64,000 nucleotides of DNA, from IMG/VR virus record IMGVR_UViG_3300029543_000205, positions 5,606-69,605 of that record. One strand, given 5' to 3'. The position numbers were made by a program, and so were the translations under genes. Below the pieces are notes generated by a model. The model was not told where the DNA came from. It saw only the letters and a list, made by a program, of their open reading frames with translations, and made no database searches. Origin of the DNA: a virus. Its lineage: Duplodnaviria; Heunggongvirae; Uroviricota; Caudoviricetes. Shown here in pieces: positions 1-34,943 of this stretch. The number at the start of each line of letters is the position of its first letter. Positions within the stretch are counted from its first letter, which is position 1.

Positions 1-659
1 ATGTAATACTTCACATGAAGAGTATGTTTTACGAACATATCTAAGCGGTGTAGGTATACATTAGCAAATAACTGGCTTGTAAGATTTCCAACCGGTATGC
101 CGACACCATCCGGGAATATCCCATTATGGTCTATTATCCGGTCAAGGATTACGAGTAAGTCCTTGTCTTTAATGTAGGTTCTGAGTTCTTTCTTCAAAAC
201 CTTATGGTCTATACTCTGGAAGTAGTGGTGTATGTCGGCTTTCAGCACATAAACTGATTTGCCTTGCACGACTTCCAGATTATACAGCCATCTTGTCAAC
301 TGCTTGCTGGCTCTGTGAGCACCTTTCCCCTTTCTGCAAGCGTAGGAATGGTATATGAACTGATGCTCAAATATCGGCTCTATATAATTGACAATCATGT
401 GTTGGATAACCCTATCGTAAAACGGCAATGCCATAATTATCCGTTCCTTTGGTTCCCACACTTTGAAAACTTTGTACTTCCCAGGAGTGTATGTCAAACT
501 CTTTAATTCCCGGCGGGCTTTGCTGAGATATTCTTCTCTGTTTGCTTCAAACTCCAAAACCTCCGGTCTGTACCTTTTGCACCGCCTCGCCTTTCTGTAT
601 GCAAGTAAGGCATTGCTCATGGTACAGATGTTTTTCATAAGACCTGTTATTCTCTTCAT
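1..659 (-). CDS. DGR reverse transcriptase, N-terminal ~219 aa; gene continues beyond window start
   Basis: Minus-strand ATG at 659-657; translation MKRITGLMKN...LLAYRKARRCKRYRPEVLEF...GIPVGNLTSQLFANVYLHRLD (RT motifs incl. DGR-typical SQxFAN); open to position 1 so absent from ORF track; adjacent TR/avd/VR. Confidence 0.8.
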   Translation of the reverse strand, partial: MKRITGLMKNICTMSNALLAYRKARRCKRYRPEVLEFEANREEYLSKARRELKSLTYTPGKYKVFKVWEPKERIIMALPFYDRVIQHMIVNYIEPIFEHQFIYHSYACRKGKGAHRASKQLTRWLYNLEVVQGKSVYVLKADIHHYFQSIDHKVLKKELRTYIKDKDLLVILDRIIDHNGIFPDGVGIPVGNLTSQLFANVYLHRLDMFVKHTLHVKYY

Positions 660-825
660 ATAATCGCTTACGTCACACTTCCTTCGCTTACGCTACTATT
701 TGACTCCGCTGTTTTAAATTTGCCCGATTCGCACGGGACGGGATAGCCGTCTGACTATTCAATAATGATTATCAAATAATCCTTGTTGGCAAGCCGTAGC
801 TCCACCAATCTGAAAGTTTCTAAAT

Positions 826-953
826 AGTCACAGACGCACCAGACGCCAATGTTCGTGTTCACGTTCCACGGATAATTGTTGCAATTCACAGTCCGCGAAC
901 CATCGTGAACCCCGTTGTTCCAGTTGCCACCGCCAATGAGCGCGTGCAAACCT
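826..953 (-). repeat. DGR template repeat (TR), 128 bp
   Basis: 115/128 identical to 1459-1586; every mismatch is T on plus strand of TR (=A in sense orientation); TR sense strand is Asn-codon (AAC) rich. Confidence 0.85.
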
Positions 954-994
954 CGGAGCGACAGTGCGAATTAACAGCTACCCCAAATAGTTGC

Positions 995-1393
995 TTATTT
1001 TCGTTTCTCTGCTTGTGCTTTATTTATCAGACCTCCGATGCACGCTCCCATAATTCCTATCTGCTCTGCACAATATTCGTAAACTCTATTGTTCATCGCA
1101 GAATATCCAAGATCGTGCGCCAATCGGATTTTTCTTACCAATTTTCCTTTCAGCCTGTCGGCTGTATAAAGATGGCTGATTGTCTTTGACCTCTCGTATG
1201 CTTCTATCTCATCCATGATTCCGTCTATACATTCTCGTATATCCTTTTGGAGAGTGAATTTCTCATAATGTGGCATTTCTCTCACTTTCTTATGGAGATA
1301 TACCGATAGGTCGTAGGCCATCTGGTGTGCTTCGGTATGAATGTAATCCATCTTGGTTGTGGTCTGATTTTCGTATTTGCTCTTGTATGCCAT
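995..1393 (-). CDS. avd: accessory variability determinant (Avd)-like small basic helical protein
   Basis: 132-aa basic ORF between target gene and TR, same order as Bordetella phage BPP-1 mtd-avd-TR-brt; position-based plus size/charge. Confidence 0.55.
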   Translation of the reverse strand: MAYKSKYENQTTTKMDYIHTEAHQMAYDLSVYLHKKVREMPHYEKFTLQKDIRECIDGIMDEIEAYERSKTISHLYTADRLKGKLVRKIRLAHDLGYSAMNNRVYEYCAEQIGIMGACIGGLINKAQAEKRK

Positions 1394-1420
1394 CTATTAC
1401 ACCCAACCTTTCAACCGCAA

Positions 1421-1444
1421 GGGACTCGGCTTTCGCCGGTCCCC
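1421..1444 (-). promoter_or_regulatory. GC-rich stem-loop (GGGAC-CGGC-GAAA-GCCG-A-GUCCC) just 3' of VR; candidate DGR homing hairpin/IMH-associated element
   Basis: Perfect nested inverted repeat with GAAA tetraloop 15 nt downstream of VR end in sense direction; absent after TR. Confidence 0.4.
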
Positions 1445-1450
1445 ATCAGC

Positions 1451-2554
1451 TTACAGCGAGTCACAGACGCACCAGACGCCAACGCTCGTGTTCACGTGCC
1501 ACGGACAATTGCCGCAATCCACAGTCCGCGAACCACCGAGAACCCCGTCGCTCCAGTCGCCACCGCCAACGAGCGCGTGCAAACCTGTGTTGTTGGCCAT
1601 GTAAAGCTGGCCAACTTTCTGTCCGCTCATAACGTCATACCAGTTCCATGCTGATCCGGTAGGGTCGTGAATGAACTCATCAAGCCACTTCCATACGTTT
1701 CCAACAAGGTCGCGAACATTCGTTGCGGAAACTGCGTTCTTTACATTTCCGCAGGCGGTTCTTGCCGTATTGGAAGTTGCGGACCATGCGTAGGTGTTGT
1801 TACCATCTTCGCCCTGTGGAGAACCGTATGCACCTTTGCAGAACTCAGCGTAGGTTGGAAGTCTCTTTCCTACTCTCATAGCTCTTTCATTGGCGATATA
1901 CCAGTTTAATCCCTCTGTTCCAGTAATCGGCACAACACCCTTTTTGCTCTGCAAACCACTGGCACCATTGTCGGATGAAAGATAGATGTCTCCCCAGAAC
2001 GGTCCGATATAAACCATTCCGGTAGGATCACAAGTAGGTCTATGGAGAAGAGTCCATACAGAGTTAGGAACAATCCCCTCTGTTACGTTTGTTTCCCATC
2101 CGCTTCCGAGTGCTGCCCCGGATGCGCTGATCGGAATACCGGAACTATTTGTTTTTCTGACTACACCGTAATGGAAGCCACCGATTTTTCTTGATGTAAC
2201 TGCTGTATAACCGTTTGGATATGTCGTATTAAGGGAAATACGATACTGTTCGGATGCAAAGTTGGTTGCGTCTCCGCCGGTGGGATCACAGATATAAATG
2301 CAGTAATCTTTTCCGACTTCAAATTTTGAAGCCGTTCCGTCCAGATTGCTTGCTGTGAGTGTGGTCTTTTCTGTCTTGAAAACAGAATTTCCTACTGCAA
2401 TCAGAACTCCGGCGATTACAGTAAGTGTTCCGCTCTCCATGCGGATGAATTTCTTATCTGATGCCACCACATCAGACATGAGGGCAAGTTTGGGAGTGGT
2501 TATCTTTGCAATATCATTCTCCATTGCCTCATCATAACCGTAGAATTTACTCAT
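1451..2554 (-). CDS. DGR target protein with C-terminal FGE-sulfatase/C-type lectin fold; putative receptor-binding tail fibre
   Basis: 367 aa; RVGKRLPTYAEF...GNVWKW motifs of formylglycine-generating-enzyme/CLec fold; VR encodes C-terminus (GGGDWSDGVLGGSRTVDCGNCPWHVNTSVGVWCVCDSL). Confidence 0.8.
   Translation of the reverse strand: MSKFYGYDEAMENDIAKITTPKLALMSDVVASDKKFIRMESGTLTVIAGVLIAVGNSVFKTEKTTLTASNLDGTASKFEVGKDYCIYICDPTGGDATNFASEQYRISLNTTYPNGYTAVTSRKIGGFHYGVVRKTNSSGIPISASGAALGSGWETNVTEGIVPNSVWTLLHRPTCDPTGMVYIGPFWGDIYLSSDNGASGLQSKKGVVPITGTEGLNWYIANERAMRVGKRLPTYAEFCKGAYGSPQGEDGNNTYAWSATSNTARTACGNVKNAVSATNVRDLVGNVWKWLDEFIHDPTGSAWNWYDVMSGQKVGQLYMANNTGLHALVGGGDWSDGVLGGSRTVDCGNCPWHVNTSVGVWCVCDSL
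1459..1586 (-). repeat. DGR variable repeat (VR) at 3' end of target gene
   Basis: 128-bp near-copy of TR; 13 substitutions all at TR adenine positions; last ~22 nt (sense GGCGTCTGGTGCGTCTGTGACT) invariant between TR and VR. Confidence 0.85.
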
Positions 2555-8169: not shown

Positions 8170-11100
8170 TTACGCTCCTTGGAAACTGTAACCGTTCGCA
8201 TTGCGCTGTGTGGTTACTGCATCCGTTACTGTCTTGCCGCCAATCTCAACAATCGTCTGTTCTTTCTTGTCGGCCTGTGTCTTTGTGTTTCTTGAAATAT
8301 CATTCACAGCGGTTGTGATACCCAGATCATCCAAAGCCTCTTTTATGGCATCTTTCAGACCGCCGCCGGAATTAAGGGTAGCCTGTACAGTTCCCCGTGT
8401 GGAAACCTCTCTCGTAACTCTCTGAACAATGGCTTCATTCGTGAAATCACTACCGTAGTTGTTCTGGTAATCTTTCAATGCAGCATTGTCGATTTTCAGA
8501 CGTGTGCCGAGGTTCACTTCCATGTTTGAGAACGAATCCGTCCAGGATGTTACAAATCCTTTTGTTTTCGCTCCCTCTTTTTCGATTCCCTCGTTATATC
8601 CCTCTACGGAATACACACCTAACTGCCGGAATACCCTTGACGGAGAGTTTATATCCAACTTGTCCTTGAACCATGAGATAATACTGCTGCCCCATGATTC
8701 AATGTTGTTCTTGCAGGTGGAATACAGATTTCCTATACCGTTCTTAAAACCATCTACCACATTTTTTGCAATGTCATACCACTTGTCATAAGAACAGGTA
8801 TTTGTGAACCACGTTTTTACATTAGAAGCCCATGTTGTAATGTTGCTCTTGCAAGTCGTATAACTGTTTCCGATTTTCGTTTTGAAGCCGGAAATAATAT
8901 TCTCTGCATAGGTGCTCCACTTAGAGCTATTGATGCCTCCAAAACCACTATCAGAGAACCATGTTTTGAGGTTTGACGCCCATGTTGTGATATTACTTTT
9001 CGTATCTGTGTATGACAGTCCGATTTTGTTTCTGAAACCAGTTATGATATTTCCTGCATAAGTGGTCCATGTGGCATTGTTGATATTTCCGAATGAAGAT
9101 CCAGAAAACCAATCTTTCAGGCCACTCGCCCAAGTAGTAATGTTGTTCTTTGTGGTGGTATAGGTGTTTCCAACCTTTTCCCGGAAACCGGAAATGATAT
9201 TGTTTGCGTAGGTCTGCCAAGTATTGCTATTGATGTTTCCAAAACCGCTGCTCGTATACCATTCCTTAACTTTGCTCGCCCAGGTTGTGATGTTATCTTT
9301 TGTGGTGGTGTATGTGTTACCCACCTTTGTTTTGAAACCAGTGATAATATCATTTGCGTAGGTGGTCCATGTACCGTTATTCACTCCGCCGAATGAAGAA
9401 CTATTAAACCATTCCTTTGCCTTTGAGGCCCATGTGGTAATGTTGTCCTTGGTCTGTGTATAGGCATTTCCCACTTTTGTCTTGAAACCGGAGATAATGT
9501 CATTTGCATATCCGGTCCATGTTTCCACGTTGATCCCGCCAAATGATGAATTGTTGAACCACTCTTTAGCCTTAGTAGCCCAAGTCGTGATGCTGTCTTT
9601 CGTGGTGGTATAAGCATTGCCTATCTTGTCCTTAAAGCCGGTTATGATGTTCTGACCGTGGGTTTCCCAAGTCTCTTTGCAAATCTTTCCAAAACTCGTA
9701 CCCGAGAACCAGTCATTGACCTTTCCGGCCCACTCCGTAACTTTTGCTTGGCAGTCTGAGAATTTCTTTCCGATGCCTCCATTGAAAGCAGTGACAAGAT
9801 TGCTTCCAAGTGTGCTGAATACGGTTGAATCGGATGAACCACCTATGCCAAATATTCCTTTGACAACATCCGTCACATTTCCGAAACAACTCAACGCTGT
9901 CTGCAATGGTGCTGGCAAAAGGGATTTAGATATTCCACCAAGCAAACCACTGACTATTTTCTCTCCGACAGTATTTATTTCTCCATCATCAGATCCAATT
10001 CCGAACTTCTTTGATATTCCCTCAACAACGCTTGTTTTCAGTTCGTTCCAAATGGCGGTCCATGATACCCATTTAAACAAATTCTTGAACGTCCACTTGG
10101 CTGCAAATACCTTAAATACTGTTTTGAGAATTGTGTCCCAGTCAATCTCGGACATTGCCGTTCCTACGCCCTTTAGAAGTTCGTACCAATCTACCTCATC
10201 TATCAAAGTGTTAATCAGTGTGCATACACCAGTGATGAGGGAATTGATTGTACCTCCTGCATCTTTCCAGTTGATGGTTTTTACGGCTTTGTTAATTGCA
10301 CTCGCAAAGTCACTACCGATTTTCTTGAAATCAATCTTTGCAAGGAATTTTCCAATACCACTGAAAAGTGTCTTGATGCTGTTTCCGAGTGTCGTTCCGA
10401 CAAGTTCCCAGTCAATGTTTGTGATTGCCGTATTGAGGTTTGAACCAAGTCCAGAACAGAAACTATCGAAGCCGTCCTTAACTGTTTTCCAGTCGATGTT
10501 TTTCAGTGCCGTATTGACACCGCTTGCAAAGTTCTTTGCGATGTCCGTCCACGGAAATGTCTTTGAGAAATTCAGTACGGCGGTAAATACCCCATTCACG
10601 AAACCGGCAAATGTTTCTCCGATTCCGTCATAATCAATTCCGGCGATCGCATTGCCGAGAAGATTTCCGATTGCAGTTCCAAGTGAAGCCCAGTCCAACC
10701 CTTTGACAAATGTTTTTGCAAAAGTGATTGCTGAGTTTATCGTATTGGAAATTGCAGTGCCGATTTTCTTCCAAAGGTCCTCTGTCTGCAGGGCAGCGTT
10801 GATTGCATCAACAATGCCTTGTGCCAACCCCTTTGCAGTCTTATTTATCAGAGTCCAATCCAGAGTATCTAATGCGCCTATGATAAGGTTTGCAATGGCT
10901 GTTCCAAGACTGCTCCAGTGGAAGTTCTCAACGAATGAATCAACAAACTCAAACGCTGAGTTGATTGCCTGTGCTATGGTTACTCCGATTTCTGTAAATA
11001 ATCCCGGGGTTTCAAGGAAACCATTCAGGAATGTGGCGATACTCTTGGCGATCTTTCTCAGTGTTGCCTTAATTCCATCCCACGGAATGTTTTCGAGAGC

Positions 11101-12855
11101 TTCTTTTAGCTTCTCTCCGAACATTCTTCCTATCTCTGTGAAATCAGCATCCGCCCATGCGTCCTTAACCATTTCCGCAAGGTCTTTGTACTTATCAGCT
11201 ACCGCATCTGTCTCATATCCGCTTCCATCAGCTCCGCTGTTGCTGCCGCTGCCGCTTTTATCGTCACTCAGGATATTAAGCTCATCTATGCCGGTGGTAA
11301 GGTTCTTTGCCGCCTTTGCTGCGCTATTTAAGGAATCTGTATAATCTTTGTTCTGTCGTATTGCCTTGGTGTAGAACTTCTTGCCTGTAAGTGCTGAGAA
11401 GAACTGTGCCAACGCGTTTGTTGCTGCAACGAGCTTCTGAATCAGATAATCCAGAATTGGAGTAACCACATTCAGGATTGGTTCAAATGCAGTTGTCAGT
11501 GATGCTCCAAGCTGACGTAAATCGTTATAAAGAAGATTTACGTTTTTGTGAAACTCTGTTCCGGCTCTTTTTGAATAAATAACAAGGTTGTCGAATCCTG
11601 TTTTTACGAGTTCAAATAGGTGTGTAAACATTGAGCGCAGTAACATGAATGTTCCAAGTCGGAGGATGGAACCCAGTTTCTTTGCAAACGCTCCACTCTG
11701 TTTTTCAGAAAAACCAAGGCTCTCTCTGACACGCTTTTTGAGTTCCTTGAATTTGTTTATAATTGCAGCAATCCCAGAACGGATTTTATTCACTACCGTT
11801 TTCACGGCAGAAATTATTTTTTGCACCTCATTCTTTACGGCATTTGCTACCTGTCTTACGGCATTGATAATGGCAGTGAGTATTGTCAGTATGATACCGA
11901 TAATAGGAATTGCCGACTGTACTGCTTCCAATCCAACTGCCATAGACTGGAATCCGGCATTTGCCGCCATGCCCCCGGTTTCAATGGCCGGAAGAATTGA
12001 TGCAATTCCACTTAATATAGAAGAAAAAGTTCCAAGTCCGCATTTCTGTGCGGCATCCCCTATGGACTTAATGGACTTTGCCACATCCTCCATATTCTTA
12101 GGAGACTGTGAAACCGTTTCCTTGAACTGCTTAAACTGTTCCTGAGCCTGTCTGAGACCATTCACAGCTTCCTCATACTGACCGGTATCAAACCGTATCT
12201 TCCCACTCTCCATACCGCTAACAGTGGCTTTGTACTTATTGATCTGGTCTATGAGTTCCTGAATACGTCTATTAGCCGGATTTGTGTTTGCCTGATTGAG
12301 ACTTTCGTTTAAGTTTGTCTGTCCGGCTGCTGCACTCTGCCCGGCGGTTCCGAGGTTACTTTCCTCCTGCGCCAACTGACTTGCCGCTGATGCAGCACCG
12401 TTCATTGCTGCCTGTGCCTCTTCTGATGCGGTCGCAACGCTTTCTGTGGCTGCTGCTGCTTGCTGACCGTTCTCCAAAGGCTGTACACGTCTCTGCGCGC
12501 CCTCAGAATCAATTCTGATGCTGACACGGTTATTTGATCCGAGGTTTCCAAGTGCTGTGCTGACTTCCTTTACGGTAGCCGCAACCTCTTTCAGTTTTGC
12601 CGTATCAACTCCTGACAGAGACTTAATGGATGATGCAATGTTTCTCATGCCACTTCCGGCATTTTTAAGATCATCTCCAACGCCGGAGAAACCACGCATT
12701 ACATCAAGAATCTGTTTTAACTTTTCTGTATCTAATCCCTCAGTGATTTTCTTCATTGAGGTAAGAGCTTTTGTTACTTTATCAATACCACCGTCTGCCT
12801 TATCAGTGGTGGCTTCTATTTCCAATAAAATGCTATCTACTCTGTTATCAGGCAT
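8170..12855 (-). CDS. tail tape measure protein
   Basis: 1561 aa, coiled-coil N-terminus, long hydrophobic central segment, ~8 tandem 50-aa repeats (NITTWASKAKEWFNSSSFGG...), preceded by G/GT chaperone. Confidence 0.85.
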   Translation of the reverse strand: MPDNRVDSILLEIEATTDKADGGIDKVTKALTSMKKITEGLDTEKLKQILDVMRGFSGVGDDLKNAGSGMRNIASSIKSLSGVDTAKLKEVAATVKEVSTALGNLGSNNRVSIRIDSEGAQRRVQPLENGQQAAAATESVATASEEAQAAMNGAASAASQLAQEESNLGTAGQSAAAGQTNLNESLNQANTNPANRRIQELIDQINKYKATVSGMESGKIRFDTGQYEEAVNGLRQAQEQFKQFKETVSQSPKNMEDVAKSIKSIGDAAQKCGLGTFSSILSGIASILPAIETGGMAANAGFQSMAVGLEAVQSAIPIIGIILTILTAIINAVRQVANAVKNEVQKIISAVKTVVNKIRSGIAAIINKFKELKKRVRESLGFSEKQSGAFAKKLGSILRLGTFMLLRSMFTHLFELVKTGFDNLVIYSKRAGTEFHKNVNLLYNDLRQLGASLTTAFEPILNVVTPILDYLIQKLVAATNALAQFFSALTGKKFYTKAIRQNKDYTDSLNSAAKAAKNLTTGIDELNILSDDKSGSGSNSGADGSGYETDAVADKYKDLAEMVKDAWADADFTEIGRMFGEKLKEALENIPWDGIKATLRKIAKSIATFLNGFLETPGLFTEIGVTIAQAINSAFEFVDSFVENFHWSSLGTAIANLIIGALDTLDWTLINKTAKGLAQGIVDAINAALQTEDLWKKIGTAISNTINSAITFAKTFVKGLDWASLGTAIGNLLGNAIAGIDYDGIGETFAGFVNGVFTAVLNFSKTFPWTDIAKNFASGVNTALKNIDWKTVKDGFDSFCSGLGSNLNTAITNIDWELVGTTLGNSIKTLFSGIGKFLAKIDFKKIGSDFASAINKAVKTINWKDAGGTINSLITGVCTLINTLIDEVDWYELLKGVGTAMSEIDWDTILKTVFKVFAAKWTFKNLFKWVSWTAIWNELKTSVVEGISKKFGIGSDDGEINTVGEKIVSGLLGGISKSLLPAPLQTALSCFGNVTDVVKGIFGIGGSSDSTVFSTLGSNLVTAFNGGIGKKFSDCQAKVTEWAGKVNDWFSGTSFGKICKETWETHGQNIITGFKDKIGNAYTTTKDSITTWATKAKEWFNNSSFGGINVETWTGYANDIISGFKTKVGNAYTQTKDNITTWASKAKEWFNSSSFGGVNNGTWTTYANDIITGFKTKVGNTYTTTKDNITTWASKVKEWYTSSGFGNINSNTWQTYANNIISGFREKVGNTYTTTKNNITTWASGLKDWFSGSSFGNINNATWTTYAGNIITGFRNKIGLSYTDTKSNITTWASNLKTWFSDSGFGGINSSKWSTYAENIISGFKTKIGNSYTTCKSNITTWASNVKTWFTNTCSYDKWYDIAKNVVDGFKNGIGNLYSTCKNNIESWGSSIISWFKDKLDINSPSRVFRQLGVYSVEGYNEGIEKEGAKTKGFVTSWTDSFSNMEVNLGTRLKIDNAALKDYQNNYGSDFTNEAIVQRVTREVSTRGTVQATLNSGGGLKDAIKEALDDLGITTAVNDISRNTKTQADKKEQTIVEIGGKTVTDAVTTQRNANGYSFQGA
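8740..9700 (-). repeat. tandem ~150-bp coding repeats inside tape measure gene
   Basis: Protein repeats GFKxKxGNxYTxTKxNITTWAxxxKxWFxxSxFGxIN recur ~8 times. Confidence 0.55.
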
Positions 12856-13796: not shown

Positions 13797-14288
13797 TTAC
13801 GCAGTTACAAAATGAAGTGCTTCTGTTCCCTCATCTGTGATAGAGAATGACATCTCTCTCGCATTGTTTGAGGAACCACTGTTCGGATATACTGCCATGA
13901 CACCGGACCACTCCCACTTACCGTCAATGCCCTCTTCTCCAAACCAGATCTGGTAGGTTTCAACCTTACCGGACTCCTGGATGGCAAGTAACTTCTGGTA
14001 ATCTGCTTTTTCATACCATGACTTAAAGTTAAGGTCTCCAGTATCTTCAATACCGTTAATGGTTCTCTTCTTTTTGTCAGAAAGAGTGGTTACATCGAGT
14101 TTTTCCTTTTCTCCACCGAGATCCGGGTACTCTGTAATGTCAACCAGTTTTTCAAATGTATCACTGTCACTCTTTTTCTTCATCAGATAAGTTGTGTTAG
14201 TACATTTAGCCATCTTCGTTCTACCTCCTTGTGTTTTCCTTTGCCTAAGAGGTAAAGCCTTGAATTTATTAAAACCACCGGCAGACAC
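13797..14288 (-). CDS. major tail protein (probable start at internal Met ~14213)
   Basis: Position between tail terminator-like gene and G/GT; ~138 aa from MAKCTNTTYL. Confidence 0.45.
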   Translation of the reverse strand: MSAGGFNKFKALPLRQRKTQGGRTKMAKCTNTTYLMKKKSDSDTFEKLVDITEYPDLGGEKEKLDVTTLSDKKKRTINGIEDTGDLNFKSWYEKADYQKLLAIQESGKVETYQIWFGEEGIDGKWEWSGVMAVYPNSGSSNNAREMSFSITDEGTEALHFVTA

Positions 14289-14331
14289 CAGGCGAGTGCT
14301 TTTCGGGAGCGACCCTAGCCGATGGAGTTAA

Positions 14332-14700
14332 TCATGTTTCCAGTTTTGAGAACCGGGTAAGGAATTGTGAAATGGAAGTATCGCTCACATTCTCCACAGG
14401 AGAGAAATAATCACAATGAAATCCAATCCCTACCATATATTCCCTTGCGGAATTTGCTAACTTCCGCACTTCTGAGGCGGATTTGTTTGAATAGAATTTG
14501 ACTTCCAATCCAAGATTGATACCGTCCTCTGTATTTGAAAGTGTGGATAACGCTCCGTCTCCGCCTATCTGTTTGAAATACATATAGGGGAATGACGGTG
14601 GTGTAGCTTTATACACCTGTCCTCCTTTCAAACTGCTGTATTGTTTCTGCAAGTCTTTCAGGAGGTTCGTAAAATACAAATTCACATTGTCCTTAACCAT
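14332..14700 (-). CDS. tail completion/terminator-like protein
   Basis: 122-aa ORF, position-based. Confidence 0.3.
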   Translation of the reverse strand: MVKDNVNLYFTNLLKDLQKQYSSLKGGQVYKATPPSFPYMYFKQIGGDGALSTLSNTEDGINLGLEVKFYSNKSASEVRKLANSAREYMVGIGFHCDYFSPVENVSDTSISQFLTRFSKLET

Positions 14701-15960: not shown

Positions 15961-16199
15961 TCTTACCCTTGCTGAGTTAAAAACTCTGCGATCAGCTTTG
16001 CTTTTACGGTTTCTTTCATGTCATACCCACGTTCCGTTGCGATAGCCTTAATCTGCGCTACTGTCAGAGCGTTAAGTTCTTCCTCTGTGTATTTCTTGTC
16101 AGTAGCCGTCTCTTCTGAAACCGCATCCGTTGATGTGGAAACAGAAGAATCAACTACCTCGGAACTACCGTCAAGGGTATGACCTGTTATTCCCCCCCC
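15961..16199 (-). other. candidate -1 frameshift C-terminal extension of major capsid protein (75 codons, Rho_N/SAP-like helical motif)
   Basis: G8 tract (plus C8 16192-16199) two codons before capsid stop; -1 frame open to TAA at 15961-15963 encoding ...KKYTEEELNALTVAQIKAIATERGYD...; no ATG start for that ORF. Confidence 0.35.
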
Positions 16200-17182
16200 G
16201 CTGTACCTGTTGTACCGCTTGCCGTGATCTTGCTAGGAAGATCTGTGGAAATATTAGTGAACTTCGCACTCATCCACTCAGGACCGTGATCCAGACCGAT
16301 CTGACCGAAGATCTGATAAGTTTCTCCTGCGCCTGTCTTAGCAAGCTGCTCTAAGAAGAAATTACCCTTACCAGGAACCATCTGATGAACAGGAGCCATG
16401 ATGGACGGATCGAACAGAACGGCAGTGCCGGCAGGCATGGTATCGAACAATGCGACTGCCACCTCTCCAAGAGGGGTTACTACGGTCTGTAACTTGATAC
16501 CGTTTACTTCTCTTCCGAGAGGAACGATAGTCAGGTTGTTCTGCTGAGCGTCAAGGTTGAGCTGCAACATAGTGGTTGCATCTACACCGAGAACGATGTT
16601 ATCTGTCTTTGCTCCCTGATCGTGAATGGACTTTAATCCCTCTGCTACAAGCCAGTAGGTAAGAGGTTTCTTTGCGAGATCGAGTATGTTGGTTGTAATC
16701 GCAGTCAGAAGTCCTCTGGTCTGGTTTGCCTCTGCATCAGTAGTAGCTTTCGCATACTTACCATTGATGAAAGTGTACTCAATATCCTGTGCGATCTTCG
16801 CCATTCTACGAGATACCTGGAACGCAAGTTCATCCATAGGATTTGCCTGCTGACCGGCTACGTTGATACCCTGCAGTGTACCCATGTTGCTCTGCTTTCC
16901 ATAAGAAATCGCTACGGACTTCTGGAAGATCTGAGTTACGTTGGTAAGCTGACTTCTGGTTACGATTTCCGGCTGTGGAGCGGTAAGGGATGCTGTCTCA
17001 GAAATCTTAGGCTGTTCGCCTGTTTCTGTGTTGTACTCCTGACCGCAAGTAAACTCTACATGATTGGTTACAAGAGGTCTTGCGCCAATCATAGTAGAGA
17101 ACGGTGTTGCCTGCTGCCCTTTAGCGAATAACATTCCGCTAAAATTAGGAACAGCGAATGATGTTGCTGTGCCCTGTGCCAT
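16187..17182 (-). CDS. major capsid protein
   Basis: 331 aa downstream of scaffold-like gene; size/position; Ala/Gly/Thr-rich. Confidence 0.65.
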   Translation of the reverse strand: MAQGTATSFAVPNFSGMLFAKGQQATPFSTMIGARPLVTNHVEFTCGQEYNTETGEQPKISETASLTAPQPEIVTRSQLTNVTQIFQKSVAISYGKQSNMGTLQGINVAGQQANPMDELAFQVSRRMAKIAQDIEYTFINGKYAKATTDAEANQTRGLLTAITTNILDLAKKPLTYWLVAEGLKSIHDQGAKTDNIVLGVDATTMLQLNLDAQQNNLTIVPLGREVNGIKLQTVVTPLGEVAVALFDTMPAGTAVLFDPSIMAPVHQMVPGKGNFFLEQLAKTGAGETYQIFGQIGLDHGPEWMSAKFTNISTDLPSKITASGTTGTAGGE

Positions 17183-18957: not shown

Positions 18958-20574
18958 CTATTCTTCTACCATTGCCGTTTTGCTCGGCTGCTTTGATTCC
19001 TCTGTCTTATCCTTTTCCTCGTTGTTCTCTCCGCCGTTCCCCTCATCATCCTTATAGGCGTTAGGGTTCGGCTGCTGTGTTTTCTCTTCCTTGGATGCAA
19101 GTTTCTTCTGGATGCCATCAATAATGTTCTTACTGTCAACCCATGCCTGCTGAGGATCTGTAAACAGTCCAACAGTATTGAATGAAGTGAGACCGTCTAC
19201 TCCGGCATTAAGTAATGCAACAAGGGAGTTTGTTTTAGACACCAGATCGTATGTCTTGGTTCTGCAGAAACGTATTTCAACGTCTGCCGTCTCTATATCT
19301 TTCAGACCGTCATACGGTCTCTGATCTGCCTTGATTATCTCTATTGCCAAATCAATAATCTGCATTTCCGGTTCCGTGAATAACTGCTCAACGGTCTTTG
19401 CAGAAATCTCCAAACACTGCCATCCATTGGATAACTGCATTGCTCCGGTGGTAGATCCGCCGCTCGCTTCCTGCCATGACGGAGTGGATGTAATCTGTTC
19501 CAACTGGGAATTGAGATGATCCACAAGTTTCTGCACCTCACTCTCATTCAATGTCTGATTGAGGTAGGTAATCTTTGCTTCCTTGCCGTCTCCGGTACTC
19601 TTTGTCATAATGACACCATCGCCGTCAACGAGATTTTTCTTACCCTCTTCATTCACTTGGCAGTTGTGCATCCAGAGTAAGGACTGAACGTGCTGCAATA
19701 TATCATTGATACGGTCTGAATCCACAAGGTTCATGGCATCCATGAGAGGGATAACCTTTTCAAAGATACCCATACGGTCATTCAGTGCAAACTCTACGAC
19801 CGGTATTCTTCTCAGTGGGTTCGGAGTGATATTCTCTTTCAAATGATAATCTGTTGTATTAAGCTCATGCTCAATGGTGTAACAGAATCTACTCGAATAT
19901 GCCGTGAGAGTGATAGTTCCATCATTGTGTATGAAGTAGGTGCATCCAAGCACCGGCTCTCTGTACGCGTCATTGGAATACACCACGAATGTTGTCAGAG
20001 GACTCGGAACCAAAAGTTCAAACGGAGAATATCGGCTTGAATTTCGGTTCGGCAGCATCATCTGGTAGCCGACACCGCAGATAAACAGATTTCTTCCAAG
20101 AGCAATGTCCTTTGCCGCTTTGCTCTGCTCCTGCATCATTTTGTTGAGCATGGCGATTTTCAAATCGTCAATGTTCTCTCCGTTATCCTCATCCTTTTTC
20201 TTTAAGAAACCGAATAAGGCTTTCTTCTGTTTCTTTGTCGGTTCTATCTTTGCTCTCTGTACGAAAGTGATCGGGTTGGAAAAACAATATCCCAGATGCA
20301 CGTCCACAATCTTTGAAGCATTGTTTTCTACGACTGTGGCATTGAGATCCGGTCTGATTTTCTTTTCACGGTTAAGAATTGGCTGATTGCCTTTCTCATA
20401 CTCAAAAAGAAAAACTTCCTGTGCCACATTCTCCTGGTGTTCCATAAACGCCTTAGATACAACCGATATGATATTGTCTTTCGTAATTTCCCTCTCATCA
20501 GTCATTAACATTCGTCTACCGAGAGTTGGACGGTTGCTTGCGTACATGAAGTTTCCCCTTTCCGAATAAAACAA
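18958..20574 (-). CDS. portal protein
   Basis: 538 aa, acidic C-terminus, first gene of head module, followed by MuF-like gene. Confidence 0.75.
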   Translation of the reverse strand: MFYSERGNFMYASNRPTLGRRMLMTDEREITKDNIISVVSKAFMEHQENVAQEVFLFEYEKGNQPILNREKKIRPDLNATVVENNASKIVDVHLGYCFSNPITFVQRAKIEPTKKQKKALFGFLKKKDEDNGENIDDLKIAMLNKMMQEQSKAAKDIALGRNLFICGVGYQMMLPNRNSSRYSPFELLVPSPLTTFVVYSNDAYREPVLGCTYFIHNDGTITLTAYSSRFCYTIEHELNTTDYHLKENITPNPLRRIPVVEFALNDRMGIFEKVIPLMDAMNLVDSDRINDILQHVQSLLWMHNCQVNEEGKKNLVDGDGVIMTKSTGDGKEAKITYLNQTLNESEVQKLVDHLNSQLEQITSTPSWQEASGGSTTGAMQLSNGWQCLEISAKTVEQLFTEPEMQIIDLAIEIIKADQRPYDGLKDIETADVEIRFCRTKTYDLVSKTNSLVALLNAGVDGLTSFNTVGLFTDPQQAWVDSKNIIDGIQKKLASKEEKTQQPNPNAYKDDEGNGGENNEEKDKTEESKQPSKTAMVEE

Positions 20575-29492: not shown

Positions 29493-29564
29493 CGACTCTA
29501 TTGGGAATCGAACCCAAATTTTCCGATAGACAGTCGGGCGTAATAACCTTTATACCATAGAGTC
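29493..29564 (-). tRNA. tRNA-Asp(GTC)
   Basis: Acceptor GACUCUA/UAGAGUC, anticodon loop CUGUCUA, T-arm UUGGG-UUCGAUU-CCCAA. Confidence 0.6.
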
Positions 29565-29687
29565 AAAACCACAAAGTAAAATGCGACCTCACACCGCGGA
29601 ATCGAACCGTTCCTTTCTCTATTGGTTTTTGGATAGAGAATGTGCAACCCATACACCTACGAATCGAACGTATCCTTTACTTTGCCA

Positions 29688-29771
29688 CGCCGTGTTAGGG
29701 ATTTGAACCCCAGAGACTTTTACATCCAGACGGTTTTCAAGACCGCACCCTCGACCAACCGGACACACGGC
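29688..29771 (-). tRNA. tRNA-Ser(TGA), class II
   Basis: Acceptor GCCGUGU/ACACGGC perfect, anticodon stem GCGGU/ACCGU loop CUUGAAA, long variable arm, T-arm UGGGG-UUCAAAU-CCCUA. Confidence 0.5.
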
Positions 29772-29885
29772 AGAGTAGTTTTCCCTTGGTAACGTACAAG
29801 TCGGAGATCCTCTTCCGCCGGTCGTAAACGCCCTTTCATAACCTTTTTATGGAGTGCTTTGAAAGAGTAAGTCAAGTGTCTCCAA

Positions 29886-29957
29886 CTGGCAAGGTGGGGA
29901 TCGAACCCACGACATTCTGATTAACAGTCAGACGCTCTACCACTGAGCTACAAGCCA
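29886..29957 (-). tRNA. tRNA-Asn(GTT)
   Basis: D-arm GCUC-AGUGGUA-GAGC, anticodon stem UCUGA/UCAGA loop CUGUUAA, T-arm GUGGG-UUCGAUC-CCCAC; two U-U mismatches in acceptor. Confidence 0.5.
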
Positions 29958-29960
29958 TTA

Positions 29961-30035
29961 TTGGAGTAGCAGGACTCGAACCTGCGCTAACCAACATCCG
30001 TAGTGTTGTGCTCTATCCATCTGAGCTATACTCCA
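29961..30035 (-). tRNA. tRNA-Arg(ACG)
   Basis: Acceptor UGGAGUA/UACUCCA, D-arm GCUC-AGAUGGAUA-GAGC, anticodon stem CAACA/UGUUG loop CUACGGA, T-arm GCAGG-UUCGAGU-CCUGC; 3 nt from preceding tRNA. Confidence 0.65.
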
Positions 30036-30525
30036 ATGCAGTCCGGCGGTAGCTTGGATGGTTGCCACTACCGAACCGATGCAACGTGTAAGACAGTTGC
30101 CAACAAAGGTATTTCATTTTTTAATGTGGTTCTCGGACCTTACACCCCTCCACATGGTTCTCATAATCCACCGACTACATACTCAAAGAACCTTTGACGA
30201 GTCCAACTCTTTATCGCCTTACCTCGGATGTACGTTGTTATCGCAGTTCTCCGCCTCTACTACATTCCTCTGCGCCTGACTAAGCATGACGGCTCGATTG
30301 GTTACGGCTCACGCACATCTGTAATCAGGTCTTTCTCGGAAGTTTCCACCGCCGCTTAAATCGCTGTAACGCTCATGCACTCTAAGCAGTAAATTTTCCG
30401 CACCGGAGTTTTTCTTGAAAACTCTTGGTAATGTAAAAGCACTTGGTGATCACCGGAACCTCGCCACCGCCAATTTTCTTTCCTGTTAAAGCCGGACTAA
30501 GAAAATCAGTTAAGAAATCCGCTCG

Positions 30526-30598
30526 TCCTACGGTGGGGAGTTGAACCCCACTTTCCCCGGCATGGTGTCCGTGGCATTTCCAGTTATGCTATCGTAGG
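30526..30598 (-). tRNA. tRNA-like/pseudo-tRNA (anticodon arm not resolvable by eye)
   Basis: Acceptor CCUACGA/CCGUAGG (1 mismatch), D-arm GCAU-AACUGGAA-AUGC, T-arm UGGGG-UUCAACU-CCCCA. Confidence 0.3.
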
Positions 30599-30802
30599 CA
30601 CCGTTGCAACAGTGGTCTTTAGCGTGACTTACGCAAGCTCTCCTATTTTAAGTCCTGTCGGCTTTCCCTGACTGCTCAAATAAGCCTCGTCAATGAGCTT
30701 TGCAATCTCCCTATTTTCCGATTGCTTCCCACGGCTTTCGCCAAAACTAATTATCAGTGAATACTAAACCAACTGTAAACAGTCAGCGTAATTCAACCGA
30801 AG

Positions 30803-30874
30803 TGTTCGGTATGGGATTTGAACCCATGTTTCCACCGTGAAAGGGTAGTGTCTTGACCGCTTGACTAACCGAAC
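30803..30874 (-). tRNA. tRNA-Glu(TTC)
   Basis: Acceptor GUUCGGU/ACCGAAC, anticodon stem CUACC/GGUGG loop CUUUCAC, T-arm AUGGG-UUCAAAU-CCCAU. Confidence 0.65.
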
Positions 30875-31013
30875 CGGTGCGGTTGTTGCTTTTTGTCTGG
30901 AAGATAGGATCCATTCAACCGCCAAAATCATAACCAGGTTCTTGCTGTTCTCCGCAAAGAAAGTCTGTCCGCGTCCAAAACATTCAATGTGGATAGGTTG
31001 CAATCTACCTAAA

Positions 31014-31093
31014 TGGGCGAAAGAGGAATTGAACCTCCAATGTTTACCACGAGGGAACGGATTTACAGTCCGCCGCAACACCACCAATCGTTG
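31014..31093 (-). tRNA. tRNA-Tyr(GTA)
   Basis: Acceptor GGGCGAA/UUCGCCC, D-arm GCAAC-GAUUGGUGGU-GUUGC, anticodon stem GCGGA/UCCGU loop CUGUAAA, long variable region, T-arm GGAGG-UUCAAUU-CCUCU. Confidence 0.55.
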
Positions 31094-31221
31094 CCGTTCG
31101 CCCGGAATTTTCTTTGTATCGCCAAGAACATTAGGAAAGAAGCGGTAGGAACCTTAATCGCAAGAGCTACGCCCACAGGTGGAATCGAACCACCACACTA
31201 CACCAAGTTCGCTCCGATCAT

Positions 31222-31533
31222 TTAGCGATTCACTTCATCTTTCAGAGCCTTGCCTGCTTTGAACTTAGGTGCCTTGCAAGCCGGAATGGTAATCTCTTTT
31301 CCGTTCTGAGGATTCTTTCCGATTCTGGCAGCACGCTCAGTTACTTCAAACGTACCGAATCCAACCAACTGTACTTTTCCACCCTTGCCGAGTTCTCCGC
31401 CGACAACTTCCACAAATGCGTTGAGTGCCTTTTCAGCATCACTCTTGGAAAGTCCGGCTCTTTCAGCCATAGCCTGTACTAATTCAGCTTTATTCATTGC
31501 TCTGTACCTCCGTTGTTGATGAAAGATCTCCAA
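31222..31533 (-). CDS. hup: HU-family DNA-binding protein (likely start MNKAELV at ~31497)
   Basis: [28 protein letters not shown]...[28 protein letters not shown] canonical HU/IHF fold. Confidence 0.75.
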
Positions 31534-32485
31534 TGTCTACGATTGTGTCTGTGCCATCAGACAGCGACACTTTCGGCAGTGCGCCGTCCCACTTCTCCAA
31601 ATACATCTGCTGCAAAATCTTATCCGTCAGCGAATCATTCAACAGCTTATTGGCATCCGCCTCTCCCTGTGCTTTAATAACGGCAGCATCAGCTTCGCCC
31701 TGTGCCTGAGTGGTTTTTACCTTGGCATCTGCCTCAGCGGCTTCAATCTTTTTCTGATTTTCAATCTGCTGCTGTTCGTAAGCTAACTGTGCAGTCTGTT
31801 TTTCAGCGATTGCCTGATTGTAACTGTCCTCAAAATCAGTATTTGCAATTACTACCTTGTTGATGATTACAACATCCTCTCCGTACTTCTCGTTGAGGGC
31901 TTTCTGGATGTTCTGCATAGAAATGGGTTCTACAATCCCTCTGTTCGTTGCATCCGTTGAGGTCAAGGACTTACTGCTTGTCTTGATTGCGGAAGCCACA
32001 AGTGTCTGCGTCACAAGGTTTTCCTTGTAGTTGCTGACGTTGGCATAAATCCATGCAGACATTTCCGGGTTGATCTGGTATGTAACTGTGATGCCGTCAT
32101 AATACAGTGCTGTTCTTTCTGATGTTTCAGACCAAATCTGTCCGTCAAATACAATGTCCTGCTGCTTGTTGTTGACTTTCTCAATCTTCTGGATGAATGG
32201 AATCTTCCAGTTTGCACCATTCTGTATTGTTGTCTCATCAATCTGTCCGAATGTGCTCTTAACTCCGGTATATCCGGTCGGTATAATCACAAGTGAATTT
32301 CCTACTCCGAATACAATCAGACCAACAAGTACAACAACAACAAAACCTTTTGGGAATTTTGCTTTCTCATTTCCCTTTTCCTCGATTTCATACTGTTTCA
32401 TCGAATATCCGGCAATGATGCCACCGAAGAAAAGCACAATACCGATGATTGTCAAAATGATACTCATTTCATTCTCCTTTTCCAT
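31490..32485 (-). CDS. SPFH/Band 7 (HflC/prohibitin-like) membrane protein
   Basis: N-terminal TM helix, SPFH core, C-terminal [20 protein letters not shown] coiled-coil. Confidence 0.6.
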
Positions 32486-32627
32486 TTGTATTGCTACCTC
32501 TGGTAGCCGTCACGGTCATGCAGTGAACATCCCGTTTTTGTTTGCACCGCTGCACTCAGCCGCCTTACATCCTCCGGTGTACCTCGGCGTGGCTTCACTT
32601 CCTAGGAAAGTGCCGGATTGCCATGCG

Positions 32628-32701
32628 TGGACCATCAGGGACTCGAACCCCAGACCGTCCGGTTATGAGCCGGATGCTCTAACCAACTGAGCTAATGGTC
32701 C
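32628..32701 (-). tRNA. tRNA-Met/Ile2(CAT), elongator type
   Basis: Acceptor GGACCAU/AUGGUCC, D-arm GCUC-AGUUGGUUA-GAGC, anticodon stem UCCGG/CCGGA loop CUCAUAA, T-loop UUCGAGU. Confidence 0.7.
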
Positions 32702-32802
32702 ATACCTCACACTTTGGGAGATTCCATGTGAGGTTTCGGAGGTTCATCATAAGTGTGAACCCTCCGATGTTGGATTGCTGTCGGGGAACAACAATTCCTA
32801 AG

Positions 32803-32875
32803 TGGGAAGTGTTGGTGTCGAACCAACTCCTATGGATTTTCAGTCCATCGCTTCTACCGAGTTAGCTTACTTCCC
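32803..32875 (-). tRNA. tRNA-Phe(GAA)
   Basis: Acceptor GGGAAGU/ACUUCCC, anticodon stem AUGGA/UCCAU loop CUGAAAA, T-arm GUUGG-UUCGACA-CCAAC. Confidence 0.6.
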
Positions 32876-33296: not shown

Positions 33297-34943
33297 CTAT
33301 ATTCCGAGTTCGCTTCTCTTCATTACCTGTCCCTCTCCGCCGAGAAGAGCATCTACAAACTGTGCGAACATTGCCAATGCGTCCGGTGCATCATCGTGTT
33401 TATTCTTTCCAAGCTGTGTGTAACTGCAAAGGAATGACATCATCACACCGTAATCACTCTTAGGTTCATATTCTGTAATATCCTTGAATATAACGTGTTC
33501 CTTAACCCATGAAGAATTGACAATGATCTTGGTCTCTTTGTTCTGGGTCGTGTATTTCTTCGTAATATGGCATCTGCCGCCTTTTTCTCTTACAAGGCGT
33601 TCTACCTCATTGGCGGTACGGCTACCCTCTTTGTTGCTCTCAAACTGTGCCTGCTGCACATGATGTTTCACAAGCATATCTGAGTTGAGTTCGTCCAGAG
33701 TTCCCGGATCGATATTCTTGAATACCAGATCTTCCAGATAATATCTGTCTCCATACTGATAGAAAACTCCGAGGAAGTTGTAGTCTGTACCGGTGTCCTT
33801 AGTATCGCAGATTGCCAATATGGAATCCGGTTCTCTGTCCGGCAGTCCTCCGAGGTATCTCTGTAATTCTGTCGGATGATACAGAATACCCTCTCTCTCG
33901 ATAGGATCACTCTTATACAGGCAACGGTATGAAACATCATCCATAGACATCTCCATGTCATGGAAGTATTTCTCGTCAAATCCGACATCGTAATCATAGT
34001 CGAAGTTGCTTTTTCCGGTCTTAGGGTCAATATCCGGCACGGCAATGAACTCTGCCCTTGGATTGCCCTCATACATCCTTTCAAGCCGTCCTATGACATC
34101 GTGGACGCTCCAACGTGTGGCAATGTGGATTTCCTTTGCCTTTTTCTTTTTACGGGATTTAAGGTCTGTCGTATACTCTCCGTACAGCTTATCCAGACGG
34201 TCAATCGACAATGCCTCTTCAATACCGGAAACCAAATCGTCCACATACAGAAATCCCTCACATCGGGTAACACCGGTAAGTGATCCTCTGATTGGTCTGC
34301 AGGTCAGTGTCTTAAAAGGCTGCCATCTTCCAAGGTTGATTGTTTCCTCTTTTGCATTGTTTCCCTCAAATATCACATCCGGGAACACATCGCTCCAACA
34401 ATACTCATTACTGGTAATAATATTGAGAACTGCGTCATAGAACATTCTCGTCATAAATCCAGAATGAGAGGACATAAGGTTTGGTGTGTTCGGATAATGC
34501 CCCATCACAAACGATATGAAGAACTCTCCCAGAGTGGTCTTGCCGGTTCCGGGTGGCATTGATATTGACAGAATATCCAGCTCATCATCAATGAGCCGTT
34601 GCATCTTCTGTACAAGCCAGTAAATCTTATTTCTTCTCGGCTGATAGTATCTGTCCTCCGGGTCTCTGTCTTTCTCCACATACAGCAAGTAAGAATCGAA
34701 GTCCTTATGTTTCTGTGCCAAGAATAACAAAGCCTGATTATAGAGGTTGTAATACTTTATATCTCCTGTGGAACAAAGCCTCAGTGCAAGGAATCGAACC
34801 TTATTCGCCAATTTCTTTGACAGTTCTTTATCTTCACTGAGGACTTCGTTCGCCATACCGAGCAATGACAGGAGATTGTCGTAATCACTCAGATCGCTTT
34901 TCAAAAGCCGTATGATTATATCTCTGTTCGACAGTTGAGCCAT
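33297..34943 (-). CDS. terL: terminase large subunit
   Basis: Walker A SISMPPGTGKTT; C-terminal RNaseH-like nuclease motif KHDDAPDALAM; 548 aa. Confidence 0.8.
   Translation of the reverse strand: MAQLSNRDIIIRLLKSDLSDYDNLLSLLGMANEVLSEDKELSKKLANKVRFLALRLCSTGDIKYYNLYNQALLFLAQKHKDFDSYLLYVEKDRDPEDRYYQPRRNKIYWLVQKMQRLIDDELDILSISMPPGTGKTTLGEFFISFVMGHYPNTPNLMSSHSGFMTRMFYDAVLNIITSNEYCWSDVFPDVIFEGNNAKEETINLGRWQPFKTLTCRPIRGSLTGVTRCEGFLYVDDLVSGIEEALSIDRLDKLYGEYTTDLKSRKKKKAKEIHIATRWSVHDVIGRLERMYEGNPRAEFIAVPDIDPKTGKSNFDYDYDVGFDEKYFHDMEMSMDDVSYRCLYKSDPIEREGILYHPTELQRYLGGLPDREPDSILAICDTKDTGTDYNFLGVFYQYGDRYYLEDLVFKNIDPGTLDELNSDMLVKHHVQQAQFESNKEGSRTANEVERLVREKGGRCHITKKYTTQNKETKIIVNSSWVKEHVIFKDITEYEPKSDYGVMMSFLCSYTQLGKNKHDDAPDALAMFAQFVDALLGGEGQVMKRSELGI

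Follow-up and report, generated by a model that had tools for sequence, protein, structure and literature searches.

We analysed a 64,000-nt stretch of DNA (positions 5,606 to 69,605 of the IMG/VR virus record IMGVR_UViG_3300029543_000205, Caudoviricetes), referred to here as the window, whose first 2,554 nt hold a tail gene, a small accessory gene, a repeat shared with the end of the tail gene, and part of a reverse transcriptase (RT) gene. Ever since the Bordetella phage BPP-1, diversity-generating retroelements (DGRs) have been known to diversify receptor-binding proteins of phages, and such elements are catalogued by the thousands in gut phages. Positions 1-2554 very likely constitute a DGR of the BPP-1 type, complete save for the 3' end of the RT gene and located where the tail module ends in a large temperate phage, itself integrated in the genome of a human-gut Lachnospiraceae bacterium. 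The entire window is prophage, and all DGR genes are on the minus strand. The features of the cassette, including its template repeat (TR) and variable repeat (VR), are:

1-659, minus strand: 5' two-thirds of the DGR RT gene, with a conserved ATG at 659-657 and an alternative ATG at 638; the open reading frame (ORF) leaves the window
660-825, minus strand: spacer (Sp) from TR to RT, the non-coding part of the DGR RNA, conserved in 21 clade members
712-737, minus strand: short stem-loop CCCG-UGCGAAU-CGGG (723-737) and A-rich run (712-722), in the same order as in the BPP-1 'cPRT Stop', read from the sequence and its relatives
740-750, minus strand: Sp strand of a 'cPRT Stop'-like duplex, ACGGCUAUCCC, beginning right after the priming AG, with its partner at 973-984
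751-756, minus strand: primer strand AGUCA then G, which complements the TR 3' end UGACU (830-826); predicted priming A at 752 (Sp position 74), G at 751
786-808, minus strand: tetraloop stem-loop UUGG-ug-GAGC-UACG-GCUU-g-CCAA, with a UACG loop, 18 nt past TR
826-953, minus strand: TR, 128 nt with 28 A, non-coding here; predicted first templated base G at 831 (TR position 123)
973-984, minus strand: upstream strand of the 'cPRT Stop'-like duplex, GGGGUAGCUGUU, within the 41-nt gap between avd and TR
995-1393, minus strand: avd (accessory variability determinant), 132 aa, between VR and TR
1421-1443, no strand assigned: putative DNA hairpin/cruciform target-recognition element, sense GGGACCGGC-GAAA-GCCG(a)GUCCC, 15 nt past VR
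1451-2554, minus strand: DGR target, a 367-aa Mtd-like tail receptor-binding protein, the final gene of the tail module
1459-1586, minus strand: VR, coding for the last ~42 target codons; 1459-1482 (24 nt) invariant

A repeat finder recovered TR and VR as a 128-nt direct repeat, 90% identical, at 826-953 and 1459-1586, exactly where a preliminary description made from the sequence had placed them. Base-by-base comparison gave 13 mismatches, and each is a T on the plus strand of TR, that is, an A on the sense (minus) strand, as that description had also claimed. Read on the sense strand, the changes from TR to VR are A>G (n=11), A>C (n=1), and A>T (n=1). Given 28 A among 128 TR positions, the chance that 13 of 13 mismatches fall on A is P=1.8e-10. 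The homology stops sharply at both ends. The invariant end that was described earlier is present, at the sense-strand 3' end, but the identity common to TR and VR runs for 24 nt (826-849 = 1459-1482) and not 22. The target stop codon lies 5 nt beyond the end of VR. No third TR-like copy was found in the 64-kb window, and no second, remote VR either there or in the 20-kb loci considered below.

The 13 differences alter 12 codons, of which seven are Asn codons (AAC or AAT), in line with the first impression that the changed codons are mostly Asn. The resulting amino-acid changes are N>D (three), N>S (two), N>G, N>H, H>L, D>G, Y>C, and I>V (two); every change listed in the preliminary description is among them, but that list was incomplete, lacking the two I>V and the one D>G. 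TR contains nine AAY codons, and a stop codon is out of reach from every TR codon. In all, 17 codons (26 adenines) are diversifiable, for a theoretical repertoire of ~2.5e15 peptides.

Because the window offers a single pair of repeats, we turned to other copies of the element. The exact Avd protein sequence occurs in 2,889 blocks of a public assembly index, from which ten 20-kb loci (L001-L010) were retrieved; with Diplocloster hominis CSJ-3 (L011) and nine loci from DNA pattern scans, these make 20 near-identical copies. They carry 19 distinct VR alleles. Across 18 distinct alleles, with the anomalous locus L009 excluded, 251 of 253 TR/VR differences fall at TR adenines (A>G 154, A>T 54, A>C 43), and in a further locus, L090, 10 of 11 do so. 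Variation reaches 26 of the 28 TR adenines, all at codon position 1 or 2, and the sole A within the invariant 3' end is never changed across copies. The VRs of the loci differ from that of the window at 12-20 of 128 positions (9-16%), and the remaining 968 nt of the target gene show 3-9 differences (0.3-0.9%) in most loci. Almost no change across loci is seen in Avd, the avd-TR gap, TR, and the spacer; among TR copies from independent assemblies, 15 of 19 are the same as that of the window and three have 1-5 ordinary substitutions. The same layout and A-biased TR/VR pairs accompany more than 40 remoter RT relatives (55-75% identical) from genomes of Lachnospiraceae and other gut Bacillota. The hypervariability at A positions that the preliminary description had proposed to look for in populations is thus what independent copies display, their VRs varying almost only where TR has an A. 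Many VR alleles together with an unchanged TR on a near-clonal background imply repeated mutagenic retrohoming, and this comparison of assemblies indicates that it takes place in natural populations.

A fossil DGR, active in an ancestor and now inert in this phage, would instead make the VR differences inherited history. Each assembly does show one VR allele, and decay occurs in the lineage, as in the premature RT stop of L008 (297 aa) and the adenine-depleted TR of L009. However, it is copies no more than 1% different elsewhere that carry the 19 distinct VRs in 20 loci, the same copies keep RT, Avd, TR, spacer, and hairpin intact with hardly any variation, and such VR turnover on a near-clonal background requires recent, repeated homing. 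Moreover, the 335-aa RT of L003, a locus that matches the window exactly, is intact and includes YMDD. We therefore consider a fossil element most improbable. The DGR is evidently active in nature, carried by a common human-gut prophage, and an ordinary member of a well-known family.

Two of the copies deserve separate mention. At L008:10756-11649, the RT stops early (297 aa, not 335) in an otherwise near-identical copy with its own diversified VR, which looks like a recently inactivated DGR. At L009:10441-10568 (corresponding to window 826-953; ENA ERZ19243417, a 303-kb contig), TR has 12 substitutions, all at adenines, so that 12 of 28 are lost, and its flanks are unchanged. The L009 VR keeps A or other bases where the L009 TR is now non-A; it still reflects the ancestral TR, so the TR now in place did not serve as its template. 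The spacer of L009 has also lost 20 nt between two CGTAAGCGA repeats. A search of IMG/VR for another, independent instance of the variant TR found none. TR and VR in this DGR family are told apart only by the sequence beyond their common 24-nt end. The L009 TR may reflect template self-mutagenesis, VR-to-TR conversion, or an assembly chimera; that a DGR here overwrote its own template, by cDNA homing into TR or by VR-to-TR conversion, seems to us rather unlikely. If true, it would be a route to self-inflicted shrinkage of a DGR repertoire and the eventual death of the element.

The RT fragment in the window matches Pfam RVT_1 (E=1.2e-10) and contains VGNLTSQ, within GVGIPVGNLTSQLFANVY, which fits the pattern [LIV]GxxxSQ. 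The DGR-type motif reported earlier is therefore present, but it reads VGNLTSQ and not IGxxxSQ. Locus L003, a 276-kb contig from a human-gut metagenome, agrees with the window at all positions compared (11.4 kb). There, the RT crosses the window edge between ...HVKYY and MRYMDDFLII... and is 335 aa long if translation starts at the second ATG and 342 aa if it starts at the ATG at 659, which the clade conserves; YMDD is found in L003 and nine further loci. Because a locus identical to the window yields an RT of 335 or 342 aa with YMDD, the gene is cut by the window edge only, and extending leftward, as had been suggested for this truncated ORF, recovers the catalytic motif just past that edge. 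Downstream of the RT are four small ORFs, followed by an endolysin gene.

The best solved relative of the full RT is the cryo-EM structure of the BPP-1 enzyme, bRT (8ub7_A, E=3.7e-51), matched end to end (residues 3-320), and the protein is 36% identical to BPP-1 Brt (E=2e-59), in agreement with the original assignment to the DGR type. One could read it otherwise, as the RT of a group II intron, a retron, or a defence system beside an unrelated 3'-end duplication that diverged under selection: the top NCBIfam match of the fragment is indeed a group II intron RT/maturase (E=2e-28), weaker Drt and retron matches follow, and phage records label relatives as 'retron-type' RT. Those matches, however, fall far below their cut-offs (group_II_RT_mat, 99.5 bits against 300; retron_St85, 28 bits against 235), whereas bRT is by far the best solved relative (E=4e-51 against ~1e-17 for group II intron RTs) and the RT has the [LIV]GxxxSQ motif. 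Furthermore, Rfam finds no intron or retron RNA in 1-2554, and ordinary divergence could not concentrate 251 of 253 differences at the adenines of a single copy. The chance that this is some other retroelement is negligible in our estimation, and we treat the RT as that of a DGR.

Between VR and TR lies the gene that had been called avd. A profile built from 16 Avd orthologues of related cassettes has bAvd as its sole match in the PDB (4dwl, E=1.4e-6; 8ub7_B, E=8e-6), and hhalign of that profile against bAvd gives a probability of 96.7% (E=4.5e-10, 103 columns), bearing out the call. As a single sequence, Avd matches Pfam bAvd at E=2e-9 (38.3 bits, cut-off 40) and NCBIfam DivGenRetAVD at E=7.7e-12 (45.5 bits, cut-off 80), and it passes the cut-off of the TIGR02436 four-helix bundle model. 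A phmmer search of the PDB with Avd alone returned no match.

The target was predicted to be the terminal gene of the tail operon with a C-terminus of the FGE/C-type lectin (CLec) fold, and the homology searches agree. It scores above the Pfam cut-offs for both mtd_2nd (E=1.2e-28) and FGE-sulfatase (E=5.9e-7, 29.8 bits, cut-off 23.3), matches PHROG 11262 'tail protein' (E=3e-68), and is last in the tail module. Residues 34-367 match the Mtd crystal structure PDB 1yu4 (E=2e-14), and by BLASTP the protein is a full-length homologue of BPP-1 Mtd, 29% identical (E=2e-25). A single-sequence AlphaFold model of the target (pLDDT 32.5) was unusable for a fold search.

Homing in BPP-1 needs a hairpin element downstream of VR, and phage DGR targets share a consensus in which a 7-10 bp GC stem, 4-34 bp from VR, carries a GRNA loop on the sense strand (PMC3240598). 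The GC hairpin previously noted after VR at 1421-1444 is present and VR-specific, but it ends at 1443. It has a GC-rich 9-bp stem with one bulged A (window 1426) and a GAAA loop, has no counterpart after TR, and fits the published consensus; a role in homing would follow from BPP-1 genetics. In relatives, the stem sequence varies, the loop is GAAA, GGAA, or GATA, and the same bulged A is present. That bulged A, in the 3' arm, is kept in all Lachnospiraceae-clade relatives despite differing stems, and the BPP-1 hairpin has no bulge; it may be a clade-specific recognition feature.

A GC-rich hairpin 7 nt past the stop codon of a terminal gene might also be a mere intrinsic terminator of the tail operon with no part in retrohoming, and its fold energy is unexceptional relative to shuffles (z=-1.6 in an 89-nt context). 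Yet no T-run follows the hairpin, a terminator scan makes no call, and avd starts 27 nt further on the same strand, which requires read-through or a promoter of its own. Relatives also keep the 4-nt GRNA loop and the bulged A on changing stems, like the required BPP-1 element (PMC3240598). We find a simple terminator very hard to credit and regard the hairpin as a probable target-recognition element.

The RNA around TR can be compared with that of BPP-1 in some depth. BPP-1 cDNA is primed from the 2'-OH of Sp A56, G57 is essential, TR G117 is the first templated base, and the Sp A56/G57 region pairs with TR 118-121 as a primer duplex (PMC6182149). Cryo-EM of BPP-1 resolved this TR:Sp primer duplex, an Avd-binding UNCG stem-loop at the Sp start (Sp 3-33), and a 'cPRT Stop' composed of an upstream:Sp duplex from 2 nt past the priming site, then a short stem-loop and A-minor adenosines; these RNA elements were proposed as conserved in 207 other DGRs (bioRxiv 10.1101/2023.10.23.563531). 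The window holds counterparts of all three elements, and covariation across relatives supports the tetraloop stem-loop and the two duplexes. We retained only explicit helices tested by pair counting, using a 21-sequence clade alignment. An 11-mer of the window stem-loop at 786-808, GCUACGGCUUG, equals BPP-1 Sp 16-26 exactly, and the four loop-proximal pairs of this stem are paired in 100% of cells, with compensatory changes in 4 of 4. The five pairs of the primer duplex are intact in 21 of 21 sequences, one of them changing from C:G to U:A in the L035/L036/L054 subgroup (TR ...UGAUU with Sp AAUCA). Taken together, the nine pairs of the primer duplex and the loop-proximal stem form in every cell (100%), compared with 30-46% when slid, and 5 of the 9 are compensatory. 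For the long-range duplex 973-984:740-750, 98.1% of cells are paired compared with 39-62% with the partners slid, 3 of 10 pairs are compensatory, and the observed covariation score was reached by 0 of 500 shuffles. At the site of the short stem-loop, clade relatives have GCC-GNRA-GGC followed by AAAGAGAAAAA. General folding methods were less informative: RNAalifold on a MAFFT alignment of the spacer gave a weak and partly spurious consensus, the whole-RNA single-sequence minimum free energy was no better than that of shuffles (z=-0.5), and RNAduplex of the flank against the spacer gave noisy output.

These observations suggest how the element would work. A transcript would span the avd 3' flank, TR, and the spacer. 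In the folded RNA, the tetraloop stem-loop after TR would dock on Avd, the upstream:spacer duplex would close the base of TR, and AGUCA would pair with UGACU; the elements themselves are supported by covariation, and the protein contacts would be those of the BPP-1 cryo-EM structure. By homology, the RT-Avd complex would prime cDNA at A 752 and copy from TR G 831. The A three bases 3' of G 831 never varies in VR, as expected if copying begins at 831. C, G, and U would be copied faithfully, with misincorporation opposite A; the A-specific outcome is observed, and the enzymology is presumed. The cDNA would then replace VR in the Mtd-like gene, guided by the invariant 24-nt end and the GAAA-loop hairpin 15 nt further on, both of which are present and conserved and would play the guiding role assigned by BPP-1 genetics. 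Under this model, 17 codons for residues of the ligand-binding face of a tail receptor-binding protein would be diversified, which presumably changes or extends host range. The claim of the preliminary description that mutagenic retrohoming diversifies this protein is thus supported by the VR alleles and the Mtd homology, with RT-dependent homing itself being inferred.

Several points weigh against reading the locus as an active DGR of the BPP-1 type. The catalytic half of the RT is outside the window and is deduced from L003, identical over the 11.4 kb compared. The single sequence of Avd is under the curated Pfam and NCBIfam cut-offs, and BLASTP against bAvd is marginal (E=0.011). Three TR/VR differences at positions other than A were seen. 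A single VR allele is visible in the window, the same as that of L003, and evidence for the activity of this particular copy is indirect. The compensatory change in the primer duplex is limited to one subclade and is probably a single event, while the priming A (752) and the initiation G (831) are tentatively assigned by analogy. The FGE-sulfatase/CLec fold of the target C-terminus is a prediction from sequence homology.

The landmark genes of the prophage are:

8170-12855: tape measure, 1561 aa, followed by tail genes up to the DGR target
16187-17182: major head protein
18958-20574: SPP1-type portal
33297-34943: large terminase

Integration appears to be site-specific. To the left of the window, homology between loci stops ~110-130 nt past the endolysin gene at a common core, ...CTGTGCTACNGCTATG (L001-L010, ~14520-14560). 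Past the core, ~22 nt form the codon-periodic end of a host gene, M-[L/K/T]-A-Q-G-[V/I]-[C/V]-stop, beyond which the host DNA is unrelated; the ten loci show at least six different downstream contexts. A common junction core and a codon-periodic host gene end in all loci point to site-specific integration, and suggest that the prophage inserts at the 3' end of a host gene that is small, conserved, and present in many contexts or hosts. No matching attL core was found in the window. A Mu-like transposable phage had been considered on account of the differing host DNA after the endolysin gene and the nearest phage RT, that of BalMu-1; the common core junction led us to reject it. The far end of the window is still phage-type (RtcB, DUF5131, a MazF-like toxin), IMG/VR contigs with this prophage are 51-82 kb long, and the prophage is at least 68 kb. 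Two loci, L080 and L089, both lie in IMGVR_UViG_3300045988_072786 (78,318 bp), with VR at one end and TR at the other. This arrangement implies an assembly that is circularly permuted and broken at the TR/VR repeat; it hints at a phage genome of ~78 kb, circular or terminally redundant, and cautions that the TR/VR repeat breaks assemblies. Since the nearest species-representative genome is Diplocloster hominis (RT 95% identical), the host is most plausibly a human-gut Lachnospiraceae bacterium.

Other contents of the prophage were recorded in passing. Thirteen tRNA genes are on the minus strand in three clusters between portal and terminase (20795-21016, 28847-31103, and 32627-32875); ARAGORN calls a tRNA with a 4-base anticodon at 30525-30598, an Rfam tRNA match with a long insertion lies at 28404-28522, and 27.8-31.5 kb has no long ORFs. 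Cargo at 22199-23929, 26316-27794, 31490-32485, and 51491-52696 comprises a protein-kinase-like ORF, a DUF2828/DUF7788/VWA protein, an SPFH/Band-7 protein, and an RtcB RNA ligase; the DUF2828/DUF7788/VWA protein matches PHROG 850 'RNA-binding protein' (E=7e-133). The RNA-repair-flavoured cargo and the tRNA set may counter tRNA-targeting host defences. An Rfam int-alpA sRNA match (14258-14325, minus strand, 43.8 bits, gathering threshold 35.8) is located inside the head-tail connector/tail block. The early region contains a PemK/MazF-like toxin gene (61639-62235, minus strand) and an FtsK/SpoIIIE-family ATPase gene (48622-49908, plus strand).

The locus is a clean natural example of its kind: it closely reproduces the architecture of the prototype in a Gram-positive gut prophage, its Avd sequence is found unchanged in thousands of assemblies, and many VR alleles occur on near-clonal backgrounds. 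That the RNA elements of the BPP-1 cryo-EM structure are recognisable here, with covariation, supports the view that the cis-priming model holds generally. A related copy exists in the cultured Diplocloster hominis CSJ-3, and the element offers a tractable system in which to test DGR-driven host-range change in gut Bacillota.

The closest known system is BPP-1 itself, with its mtd-avd-TR-brt cassette. Both loci have, in the same order, tail genes, a target with a 3' VR, a GAAA-loop hairpin, avd, TR, spacer, RT, small ORFs, an endolysin gene, and the prophage end. The motifs GIPxGxLTSQLFANVY and RYMDD are common to both RTs, the TR-encoded peptides align without internal gaps and with coinciding Asn codons, and the three RNA elements are shared, with the 11-mer of the Avd-binding stem-loop identical. 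In contrast, BPP-1 is a 42-kb Bordetella phage, whereas the carrier here is a Lachnospiraceae prophage, from a Gram-positive gut host, that spans at least 68 kb and has an SPP1-type portal and a long tape measure. The window Avd is ~20% identical to its counterpart and detectable only by profile. TR abuts avd in BPP-1 and the upstream strand of the stop duplex is inside avd, while here that strand occupies the 41-nt avd-TR gap. BPP-1 has an initiation of mutagenic homing site (IMH) and an IMH* with five mismatches between them, whereas TR/VR homology in the window stops abruptly after GUGACU. The BPP-1 hairpin is 4 nt from VR and has no bulge; that of the window is 15 nt away with a bulged A. 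Unlike that of BPP-1, the primer duplex here consists of five contiguous Watson-Crick pairs. The differences are matters of degree, and nothing is new in kind.

Megablast of 1-2600 against 50,697 annotated phage records gave no match, so that collection contains no near-identical record. The closest RT in those records is that of Bacillus phage BalMu-1 (47% identity over 219 in-window residues, E=1e-50), which has another host and is another type of phage. Other close systems are the DGRs of human-gut Bacillota prophages (for example Faecalibacterium, the 'GuFi' phage family, and Eubacterium rectale), temperate phages with RT and Avd and a tail or receptor-binding target. The Eubacterium rectale prophage DGR figures in hairpin comparisons (PMC3240598), and gut prophage DGRs are reported to show raised non-synonymous variation confined to VR in populations (bioRxiv 10.64898/2026.01.26.701711; PMC11792537).

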